Positions 1 to 25,960 of a stretch of DNA of 25,977 nucleotides are shown piece after piece. The notes under the pieces are model-generated. The model saw only the letters and a program-made list of their open reading frames with translations. It had not been told where the DNA came from and ran no database searches. Origin of the DNA: Parachlamydiaceae bacterium (GTDB taxonomy: Bacteria > Chlamydiota > Chlamydiia > Chlamydiales > Parachlamydiaceae); the NCBI GenBank assembly GCA_013698165.1, contig JACCVN010000363.1, positions 1 through 25,977 on the forward strand, given 5' to 3'. A program made the translations under genes and the position numbers. Numbering within the stretch: the stretch's first letter is position 1; the number at the start of each line of letters is the position of its first letter.

Positions 1-338
1 AGTAAAGTCCTTGCAAGTAGGCCTTTGAGTCGGAACGTGGTCTGCAAAAAGTTTGGCATGTCACGTCCAAACTCGGCATTGGAATGCCAAGCTACGTACT
101 GCACGACGTTTTGCTTGTCACGTCCAAGCGACAATAGCGAGCCCAACACGTAGCTTGGCATTCCAATGCCGAGTTTGGAGTGCACAAGTAAAGTCCTTGC
201 ATGTAGGCCTTTGAGTCGGAACATGGTCTGCAAAAAGTTTGGCATGTCACGTCCAAACTCGGCATTGGAATGCCAAGCTACGTGCTGCACGACGTTTTGC
301 TTGTCAAGCCCAAACGACAATAGCGTGTCCCACATGTA
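1..338. repeat. 186-bp-period tandem repeat (1-152 vs 187-338), probably continuing off the left edge
   Basis: Ungapped alignment at offset 186: 3 mismatches over 1-120 vs 187-306 and 10 mismatches over 1-152 vs 187-338. Confidence 0.95.
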
Positions 339-369
339 ATCAACTCGCCGTTGAAATGCCAAGCTACGT
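66..369. repeat. Four copies of a 32-bp palindromic REP-like motif in mixed orientation (66-97 +, 148-179 -, 252-283 +, degenerate 342-369 +)
   Basis: TCCAAACTCGGCATTGGAATGCCAAGCTACGT at 66-97 and 252-283; its exact reverse complement at 148-179; 25/28 match at 342-369. The core reads GTAG + CTTGGCATT-CC-AATGCCGAG (150-173). Confidence 0.85.
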
Positions 370-543
370 TTTGGGAGAGTTAGGTTTTTAGCAAATGTGG
401 TTTTATACTTAATAACTTTTTGGATTCTAAAGACACCACACAAAGTGGTAAAAGATGCCTGCAGTTGATCTTGCATTAAGGCATTGCACATGAATAGCTT
501 GTGAGTTCGATTATTGCTATCTCGCGGCATGCGCTTTAAGTGC

Positions 544-571: not shown

Positions 572-644
572 ATCTAATTTCTCTAGCGATAGAGATTAAA
601 GTTTCGCTGAAGTTAATGAAAAAACTCTTCAAGAACCTTTCTCT

Positions 645-719
645 GGCCCCATCGTCTAGTCTGGTCTAGGACACCGGATTTTCATTCCGATAACTGGGGT
701 TCGAATCCCCATGGGGTCA
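645..719 (+). tRNA. trnE: tRNA-Glu (anticodon TTC), CCA not encoded
   Basis: Acceptor stem GGCCCCA/TGGGGTC, anticodon loop TT-TTC-AT (681-683), T-arm TGGGG-TTCGAAT-CCCCA. Confidence 0.96.
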
Positions 720-724
720 TACAT

Positions 725-798
725 GAGTCTTTAGCTCAGCTGGTTAGAGCACCTCACTTTTAATGAGGGGGTCGATGGTTCGAATCCATCAAGACTCA
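725..798 (+). tRNA. trnK: tRNA-Lys (anticodon TTT), CCA not encoded
   Basis: Acceptor stem GAGTCTT/AAGACTC, D-arm GCTCAGCTGGTTAGAGC, anticodon arm CCTCA-CTTTTAA-TGAGG, T-loop GGTTCGAATCC. Confidence 0.97.
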
Positions 799-833
799 TT
801 TTCCTTCTTTTCAATTTATTGAATAAATTTTTT

Positions 834-16231: not shown

Positions 16232-16249
16232 AAAAGCTTTATTATGTTG

Positions 16250-16410
16250 TATCCTGCAGCGTCTCGCTGTAGGAGTGAGTGAAGCGTAAATGCTTTTCTT
16301 TGTGATTCTAGCACCTGCTGCGAGACACATTTCTGTCCTGAGGGATTCCTCACTTCCAACAATACGAGCTACCCGTGTTTTATTTGCTCCGGAGCGAGTA
16401 ACCAGGATAA
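16250..16410 (+). ncRNA. Candidate structured non-coding RNA, long closing hairpin (6S RNA-like)
   Basis: End-to-end pairing 16250-16256/16403-16409, 16263-16268/16393-16398 and 16272-16287/16375-16390 (16 consecutive pairs, 7 of them G-U on the + strand). Confidence 0.5.
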
Positions 16411-24646: not shown

Positions 24647-25579
24647 ATGAAAAAGTGGTTTTTGTATTTTATAATTGTTATTTGTTTGACTGTCAAAGTC
24701 CATGGCTGGTGGGATGTTCCTCATATGCTGGTAGCGCAAATTGCTAAGGACAATATAGAACCCAAAACTTGTGAACGTGTAGAAGAGCTTCTGTCCTATT
24801 TCAAAGACCATTTTCCAAAAAGCAATTCCATTGTGACGGCTGCTTGTTTTCCAGATGATATTACATCTTTAGGCCTATCCGGCTTTAAAGTATGGCATGG
24901 AATGTTAACCCCTTATTGTCCTGACCACTATTTGTCAGAAGAGACTTTTAGCTGTATTGAAGCATTGGTTAATGATAACAATATTCTTTCAGGAATTAAC
25001 CAAAGCTTGAAAACTTTGCGTAATCCTTCCGCAAGTAAATGGGAAAAGTGTTTTCTGTTGAGGTTTTTATTACATTGCGTAGCTGATATTCACCAACCTT
25101 TGCACTGTATTCAGATGTATAGCAAGGAGTTTCCATCCGGCGATTTTGCTGGACATCGTTTTACAATCTCGGAAATGCCCTATGCTGATCTACATCAACT
25201 TTGGGATGCAGCATTTGGAATCGGATTTAAAAGAATGAAACGTCCCTTATCCGATCAAGATGCCCTCTGGATCAAAGAAACAGCAGATTTTATCGCGACC
25301 AATTTTCAAAATGAGATTTCTCCCCAAATTCATAATATGAATATCTCTGAATGGAGCCAGGAAAGTTATCAATTAGCCATAGATTTTGCTTACACAGGAA
25401 TTCAGCCTGGGGATAAACCTTCTCAAGATTATTTGGACAAGGGCGAACGCATTGCTTTACGCCAAATTGCCCTTGCAGGCTTTAGGTTGGGCACTCTTCT
25501 GGAAGAGCTTTTTGGTGAGGTAGCCTGCGGCGTCTCGCAGCAGGAGTCAGGGGTGAATGATGAGCTAAACATCAATTGA
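24647..25579 (+). CDS. Secreted S1/P1-family nuclease
   Basis: Signal peptide ending VHG/W21. Mature N-terminal W..H (WWDVPH), PDD, VWH, LLHCVADIHQPLH, DLHQLWD (Zn ligands), QIALAGFRL. Confidence 0.92.
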   Translation: MKKWFLYFIIVICLTVKVHGWWDVPHMLVAQIAKDNIEPKTCERVEELLSYFKDHFPKSNSIVTAACFPDDITSLGLSGFKVWHGMLTPYCPDHYLSEETFSCIEALVNDNNILSGINQSLKTLRNPSASKWEKCFLLRFLLHCVADIHQPLHCIQMYSKEFPSGDFAGHRFTISEMPYADLHQLWDAAFGIGFKRMKRPLSDQDALWIKETADFIATNFQNEISPQIHNMNISEWSQESYQLAIDFAYTGIQPGDKPSQDYLDKGERIALRQIALAGFRLGTLLEELFGEVACGVSQQESGVNDELNIN

Positions 25580-25580
25580 T

Positions 25581-25960
25581 AGCCGCAAAATGCAGCACTT
25601 GTAGTCTAACGTAAGTAAATTTGGAGCTCGAAGGGGCAGCTGCCGCCGCCGCATTCGCGGCTTTAAATTTATTTTTGTTAAACCACTGGCATAGGCCTTA
25701 TCATTACCCATATTTCAAAATCTAGGGTTAGATAAAAGAGAATATTAGCAACCCGCAGCTGCGGCTCTCTTCGCTATCGCTCGCAAGCCTTGCTACGGGC
25801 TAGGGTGTTGTTTTTGTGCAAAAAATTGGGTTTTTTATTCACATGAATTTAAGTATATTTAGGTATAACCTATTTAAGGTAATGTATTGCGATATACTTC
25901 ACAAATGAACCTCTAGCCGCGAAATGCGGCGACAGCATGTAGCCACACGCGTAAGTGTGG
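25581..25960. repeat. Cluster of short GC-rich hairpins / REP-like elements
   Basis: GCCGC-GAAAT-GCGGC (25916-25930), GTAG+CCACAC-GCGTAA-GTGTGG (25939-25960), inverted near-copy at 25647-25662, degenerate direct copy at 25581-25596, palindrome CCGCAGCTGCGG at 25753-25764. Confidence 0.6.

Follow-up and report, generated by a model that had tools for sequence, protein, structure and literature searches.

A BIME-like array of GTAG-type REP sequences in an environmental chlamydia, most likely the downstream flank of a RAYT gene

Introduction

REP/RAYT systems are best known from Proteobacteria. The REP sequence of E. coli is a short imperfect hairpin with GTAG on its 5' side, it lies outside genes, and in the BIMEs two REP subtypes, Y and Z, alternate and are joined by characteristic linkers. 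The transposase TnpA-REP (RayT, PDB 4ER8) is encoded by a single-copy HUH/Tyr gene with inverted REPs on its flanks, and it is the established model for how a REP is bound and cleaved. In Pseudomonas the REPINs are inverted doublets whose arms are conserved and whose spacers vary, every RAYT has a repeat population of its own, and one genome can hold several such systems (Bertels and Rainey 2011). The inheritance of REPIN-RAYT systems is described as being almost exclusively vertical and their transfer as rare (bioRxiv 10.1101/2021.07.10.451892), and the idea that they are transferred on long time scales has been discussed (bioRxiv 10.1101/119735). Within the PVC superphylum, the only reports of GTAG REPs concern Planctomycetes and Opitutus terrae (PMC3733652), and our literature searches gave no publication connecting Chlamydiae with REPINs or RAYTs.

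The DNA analysed here, called the window in its whole length of 25,977 nt, comes from a soil metagenome-assembled genome (MAG) of an environmental chlamydia. Its first 369 nt are a cluster of a REP family named REP-B, of BIME-like build, which very probably stands directly 3' of the gene of its cognate transposase, RAYT-1. As in E. coli, GTAG is found 5' of a short imperfect hairpin, the repeats are extragenic, two subtypes alternate with characteristic linkers, and the transposase gene is a single-copy HUH/Tyr gene between inverted REPs. The REP-B core and linkers are, however, unrelated to those of E. coli, the copy number is far lower, RAYT-1 has an insertion of about 50-70 residues after the first strand, and the host is a chlamydia of the intracellular type. 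The inverted doublets with conserved arms and variable spacers, the several systems in one genome and the separate repeat population of each RAYT are shared with Pseudomonas, but the REP-B population is small, and RAYT-1 appears to have crossed phyla. The TnpA proteins of IS200/IS605 elements have the same Y1 HUH fold, and by analogy RAYT-1 may share their recognition of subterminal hairpins in single-stranded DNA; it differs from them in being single-copy, in scoring better with the RAYT model, and in having hairpins that are dispersed without the gene. The system is of a known kind, and what this locus adds is an array that is likely a transposase flank, together with a sister system in the Verrucomicrobiota.

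Results and discussion

The window and the anatomy of the array

The MAG comprises 2.96 Mb in 640 contigs (N50 5.2 kb, 39.8% GC, 89.8% complete). The window is one entire contig of it, and the array therefore stands at a contig end (Table 1). The contig encodes CPAF (NCBIfam chlamy_CPAF, 614 bits against a cut-off of 250), and a family search found two NTP/NDP exchange transporter (NTT) genes on it as well, and these confirm that it is chlamydial. Two copies of a second GTAG REP family (GTAGCCTGCTGCG-TCT-CGCAGCAGG) are present at 16249-16273 and 25520-25544, and 16-mers of two further high-copy repeats, AGCCGCGAATGCGGCG and CAAAAACAACACCCTA, with about 55 copies each genome-wide, are found at 25640-25820. 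With the array at the left end and the high-copy repeats near the right, both ends of the contig break in repeats. A separate family in the same genome is a near-perfect long palindrome of about 170 nt that starts CTAGTACACTGTCAAGG (for example G000 C4:2280-2450); it has about 60 copies and lacks the GTAG-hairpin anatomy.

Table 1. Positions of the REP-B array, its parts and the genes discussed in the text
Feature	Position	Strand	Remark
Window, complete contig C340	1-25,977		soil MAG, environmental chlamydia
REP-B array, four REP copies, 186-bp periodic BIME-like mosaic	1-369	.	contig start; inferred 3' flank of RAYT-1
REP-B copy, flank subtype 2 (TGCAG.AC-GTAG ... TTTGGACGTGAC)	66-97	-	GTAG on minus
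50-nt linker of GTAG-inward pair	98-147	.	partly self-complementary
REP-B copy, flank subtype 1 (CCCAA.AC-GTAG ... TTTGGAGTGC.C)	148-179	+	GTAG 150-153, hairpin 154-173
72-nt spacer of GTAG-outward doublet	180-251	.	REPIN-like unit
REP-B copy, flank subtype 2	252-283	-	32-nt core identical to 66-97
57 nt identical to the end of contig C596	291-347	+	likely assembly-graph junction
Decayed REP-B copy, 3 mismatches in 24-nt core	342-375	-	last REP before unique sequence
tRNA-Glu(UUC) 644-720, tRNA-Lys(UUU) 724-799	644-799	+	synteny anchor
RAYT-1, 241 aa	C596:1878-2603		
RAYT-2	C330:4625-5446		
RAYT-3	C487		

The first-pass annotation, made from the letters alone, had described a 32-bp motif in alternating orientation, and its geometry was recovered in full. 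The plus-strand form of the 32-mer, TCCAAACTCGGCATTGGAATGCCAAGCTACGT, occurs at 66-97 and 252-283, and its exact reverse complement at 148-179. Read on the GTAG strand, the core consists of GTAG and then CTTGGCATT-CC-AATGCCGAG, so that the imperfect 9-bp palindrome noted at 150-173 consists of 9-nt arms with one G.T position and a CC centre. In an alignment of 43 copies, both the tag and the stem are conserved. The first two copies in the window are 100% complementary to each other, and their arms are 50 nt apart, which is the linker length given at the outset. The second and third are the GTAG-outward pair that had been called perfect; the 32-nt cores, 72 nt apart, are indeed perfect, and the longer arms of 36 nt, at 144-179 and 252-287, show 97% complementarity. 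The 186-bp tandem repeat is seen as a direct repeat of 1-152 and 187-338 with 93% identity. The last arm at 342-369, described as flipped and decayed, is an 89% copy in the orientation of 256-283 and breaks the alternation.

Tandem Repeats Finder reported no array on the window, because the array does not reach two full units. A CRISPR array was considered and rejected, as the copies alternate in orientation and the spacers are repeated too.

REP-B is a dispersed family

A contig end inside the repeat, if there was one, had been taken to suggest that the motif is multicopy, and confinement to this one locus would have spoken against its REP character. The 32-mer has 24 sites in the genome at up to 3 mismatches, compared to none for a reversed-pattern control, which means that its abundance is not due to chance. 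At up to 6 mismatches there are 34 sites, and 12 copies are identical. An nhmmer profile built from the copies gave 73 non-overlapping matches at E<0.01 (53 at E<1e-4), spread over 45 contigs in 48 clusters. These are 33 singlets, 10 doublets, 3 triplets, the four-copy cluster of the window, and one array of seven REPs with the same period of about 186 bp in the middle of contig C310. The singlets outnumber the doublets, contrary to what is seen in Pseudomonas. A search of 60 related genomes, 36 of which represent other genera of the same family, gave no match to the core with 3 or fewer mismatches.

Among the 25 adjacent pairs of copies, 19 are inverted and 6 direct. The inverted ones comprise 12 with GTAG outward, which is the commonest type and the one with the 72-nt spacer between 32-mers, and 7 with GTAG inward. 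Measured between the 44-nt nhmmer matches, the gaps are 58-68 nt in the outward pairs, with one exception of 138 nt, and 39-41 nt in the inward ones. Alignment of the copies shows two flank subtypes, which alternate in the window. The cores are far better conserved than the linkers, whole units are 75-93% identical, and the isolated copies have ragged edges that differ from copy to copy.

The expected bias towards intergenic DNA is also clear. Counted from ORF calls rather than with a gene finder, 66 of 74 REP-B matches (about 89%) lie outside ORFs of at least 100 aa, although such ORFs make up 81% of the genome, and half of the remaining eight belong to a single open frame in the window itself (3-632). 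Thirty-two clusters have genes on both sides, 20 of them between tandem, 10 between convergent and 2 between divergent genes, and 30 of these 32 adjoin at least one gene 3' end. Sixteen of the 48 clusters are found at contig ends. Repeats of the REP type help to account for the poor assembly of such MAGs, as a third of the REP-B clusters coincide with a break.

RAYT-1 and the other Y1 genes

The motif had from the start been assigned to the REP/REPIN/BIME elements that are mobilised by RAYT transposases. This reading is supported, since the motif is dispersed and extragenic and is found inverted on both sides of a RAYT gene. A search of the genome with the Pfam Y1_Tnp model gave eight matches, three of which are RAYT-like and carry the motifs LPHW / YFVTFRL / MPNHVHV / WQ..FD..IR / Y..NP. 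With the NCBIfam model REP_Tyr_transpos (cut-off 80 bits) the scores are 51.7 for RAYT-1, 63.5 for RAYT-2 and 98.6 for RAYT-3, so only the last one passes, and RAYT-1 is also below the Pfam Y1_Tnp cut-off (21.4 compared to 23 bits). All three nevertheless score higher with REP_Tyr_transpos than with the IS200 model, which gives 17.3 for RAYT-1. The residues of the HUH and Y..NP motifs (H153, H155, Y209, N213 and P214) do not vary among six chlamydial sequences. A family profile of these six, compared with solved structures, had TnpA-REP 4ER8 as its best match (E 9.8e-9), well above the IS200/IS605 transposases; phmmer with RAYT-1 alone gave no match among the PDB sequences. RAYT-1 is present in a single copy, and RAYT-2 and RAYT-3 are distinct genes.

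On contig C596 the RAYT-1 gene is flanked by inverted cognate REPs. To its left, at about 1800-1832 on the plus strand, is a variant REP-B, GTAGCTCGGCAT-ACTG-ATGTTGAG, which is divergent (nhmmer E 2e-3) and folds into a hairpin of -10.3 kcal/mol (z -6.0). To its right is a canonical copy on the minus strand (2702-2743), in a unit that starts 20 nt past the stop codon. The same arrangement, a plus hairpin, the gene and a minus hairpin, is common to all three RAYT genes, and the repeat family is a different one at each gene. RAYT-3 stands between doublets of the GTAGCCTGCTGCG-TCT-CGCAGCAGG family, which has 141 sites at up to 2 mismatches on 92 contigs, and RAYT-2 between GTAATCAGGCCG-TCT-CGGCCTGA hairpins, with 30 sites in the genome. 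The hairpin tags of these two families are GTAG/GTAA. The genome is thereby a clean case of three RAYT/REP pairs residing together in an environmental chlamydia.

Among the IS200-type genes, an open frame at G000 C468:7894-8742 has two Y1_Tnp domains in tandem (80.8 and 67.3 bits), an unusual fusion. The frame reaches the contig end.

The array as the downstream flank of RAYT-1

Contig C596 has the order pyrH, frr, REP, RAYT-1, REP-B unit, contig end. Its frr is 60-75% identical to that of genomes of the same family, which identifies C596 as chlamydial DNA. The possibility that it is a contaminant was rejected on the same ground, and also by the GC content of RAYT-1, which at 38.7% is host-like, while the verrucomicrobial homologues have 62%. 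In five related genera, tRNA-Glu(UUC) and tRNA-Lys(UUU) follow directly after frr, within about 70-125 nt. The window starts inside the REP-B array and then reaches the same two tRNA genes. In addition, the end of C596 and the window share an exact terminal overlap of 57 nt, which is of the kind that a de Bruijn assembler leaves where a repeat branches. The synteny and the overlap together place C596 directly upstream of the window, and the array is most likely RAYT-1's own downstream flank, the physical join of the contigs being deduced from these two observations. The order would then be pyrH, frr, REP, RAYT-1, REP-B array, tRNA-Glu and tRNA-Lys. The gene and its repeats would in that case be an inserted segment, about 1.25 kb long or longer, in what is a short spacer in related genomes.

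A break at this place raises the question of whether the 186-bp duplication could be an artefact, made by dispersed copies that were collapsed or mis-joined at the contig end. The array does lie at such an end, like a third of all clusters, and the 57 nt of C596 are shared with the second unit. Logan contigs from three soil-metagenome runs were compared with 1-1500, and none of them spans the array; their depth is low (about 4-6) with a spike at 151-200, and their apparent joints are short contigs which may come from other REP-B copies, so that they are uninformative on the array length. The two units, however, differ at 7% of their positions and are not a simple duplicate, an array of seven REPs with the same period was assembled in the middle of C310, and periodic arrays of REPs are likewise found next to the verrucomicrobial homologues. 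We consider an artefact unlikely, and the REP/RAYT reading would survive even if there was one.

Folding of the hairpins

As single-stranded DNA, one REP-B copy is a modest to weak hairpin. The copy at 148-179 folds with -5.6 kcal/mol on the GTAG strand (z -0.9) and -4.9 on the complement, and the copy at 66-97 with -7.4 and -4.5 kcal/mol, respectively. The GTAG strand folds better because its T.G position turns into a C.A mismatch on the complement. The pairs of copies fold very strongly, both the GTAG-outward doublet (144-287, -50.6 kcal/mol, z -11.2) and the GTAG-inward pair (62-183, -46.2 kcal/mol, z -11.3).

Such strong folding may suggest that the array is chiefly regulatory and separates the transposase gene from the tRNA genes as a structured insulator or stabiliser, its mobility being incidental or extinct. 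Secondary roles of a regulatory type are established for the REPs of E. coli, and the preference of the two-sided clusters for gene 3' ends would agree with such a function. The REPs do not have a T-run, though, and no terminator-like site was called at them. No Rfam family reached its threshold; on the array there were only sub-threshold matches of microRNA type to the long hairpins, and we take these as chance. Nor would a regulatory function explain the GTAG tag or the linkage to RAYT genes. As the chief role of the array we regard it as very improbable, and it is compatible with an array made by RAYT-1.

A possible route of REP-B spread

By analogy with TnpA-REP, RAYT-1 would recognise the GTAG tag together with the folded hairpin on single-stranded DNA, and as an HUH/Tyr enzyme it may then cut and rejoin the GTAG strand of the REP. 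The outcome would be that REP singlets and inverted doublets (REPINs) are copied into other intergenic gaps. The RAYT-1 gene itself would stay put as a single copy, and the cluster beside it could expand through insertions close by or through recombination of one copy with another. The intact RAYT-1 gene, the many identical cores and their better conservation than that of the linkers are indirect signs that REP-B may be active, or was so recently. No transposition event or insertion polymorphism was seen in our comparison set, which consists of genomes from other genera.

It is conceivable that REP-B, as a palindromic repeat or MITE, instead owes its spread to another enzyme or to recombination, and that it stands next to RAYT-1 by coincidence. 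RAYT-1 falls below the curated cut-offs of both Pfam and NCBIfam, and the genome has other abundant palindromic repeats as well as IS200-type Y1 genes. A coincidence would, however, have to be repeated at three RAYT genes, each with its own family on its flanks, and it would not account for the REP-B core occurring together with the RAYT-1 clade in the Verrucomicrobiota (see below). This makes an origin independent of RAYT-1 improbable to a high degree. Finally, it is scarcely credible that the repeats are coding as part of the 210-aa minus-strand frame at 3-632, which is open through the entire array, since the frame has no family match, about 89% of the copies lie outside long ORFs, and one motif would have to be read in both orientations; we have rejected it as a gene.

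Relatives and origin of RAYT-1

RAYT-like genes (E<=1e-15) were found in 9 of 400 sampled genomes of the phylum, and 7 of these 9, the present genome included, belong to this family. Among representative genomes, the nearest relatives of RAYT-1 are in verrucomicrobial MAGs (59%, 57% and 45% identity), followed by Kiritimatiellota and Planctomycetota. A quick maximum-likelihood tree, with sequences picked by their similarity to RAYT-1 and an arbitrary root, places RAYT-1 inside a clade of three Verrucomicrobiota sequences (SH-aLRT 98).

The two closest homologues come from soil Verrucomicrobiota (Chthoniobacter-type MAGs, L054 and L055), and both have periodic arrays of GTAGCTCGACATTCCAATGTCGAG on the two sides of the gene. 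This hairpin agrees with the REP-B core at 21 of 24 positions, it has the same TTCCAA loop, and there is one compensatory pair, from G-C to A-T. The two genomes, of 8 Mb, contain 82 and 63 copies. REP/RAYT pairing of this type is accordingly present in both phyla. The verrucomicrobial systems differ from REP-B in their unrelated linkers, their shorter doublet spacers and a host GC of about 60-64% as compared to 40%.

The housekeeping protein frr of these verrucomicrobial genomes is only 40-42% identical to that of the present genome. The simplest reading of these comparisons is an old transfer of a whole system between phyla, followed by long residence. A complete REP/RAYT system would have crossed between the Verrucomicrobiota and the chlamydial lineage, founded a REP population and stayed until the base composition of the gene became host-like; we hold the case for this course of events to be evenly balanced. 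Alternatively, RAYT-1 and its hairpin may go back to an ancestor shared by the PVC phyla, with very slow evolution and with losses on a massive scale in other lineages. If the transfer is true, it would be a concrete inter-phylum case for a system described as nearly always vertical, and the transferred system would sit in a genome that keeps two other RAYT/REP pairs. A RAYT-1 and a hairpin in common with soil Verrucomicrobiota also offer a natural test of the specificity and heritability of REP/RAYT systems. A relative of RAYT-1 in another genome (G006) is a truncated frame of 118 aa in a different neighbourhood, and no REP was found beside it.

One of the two verrucomicrobial loci, L054 (CAMAUZ010000118.1), is titled Akkermansia muciniphila. 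The genome measures about 7.9 Mb, the GC content at the locus is about 60%, and the RAYT and REP match those of a Chthoniobacter MAG; the species name therefore appears to be mistaken.

RAYT-2 belongs to a tight chlamydial clade with up to 94% identity between genera. The frr genes of the same genera are 57-75% identical, far below RAYT-2, which is a hint of transfer among chlamydiae. The genomes that carry RAYT-2 have 18-252 copies of its hairpin, and 49 of the 60 relatives hold none. In one genome, from a related genus, a RAYT-2-type pseudogene (L146, G024:C257:28351-28838) has ten in-frame stops, and six matching hairpins are left, which fits a decay of the repeats after the loss of the transposase.
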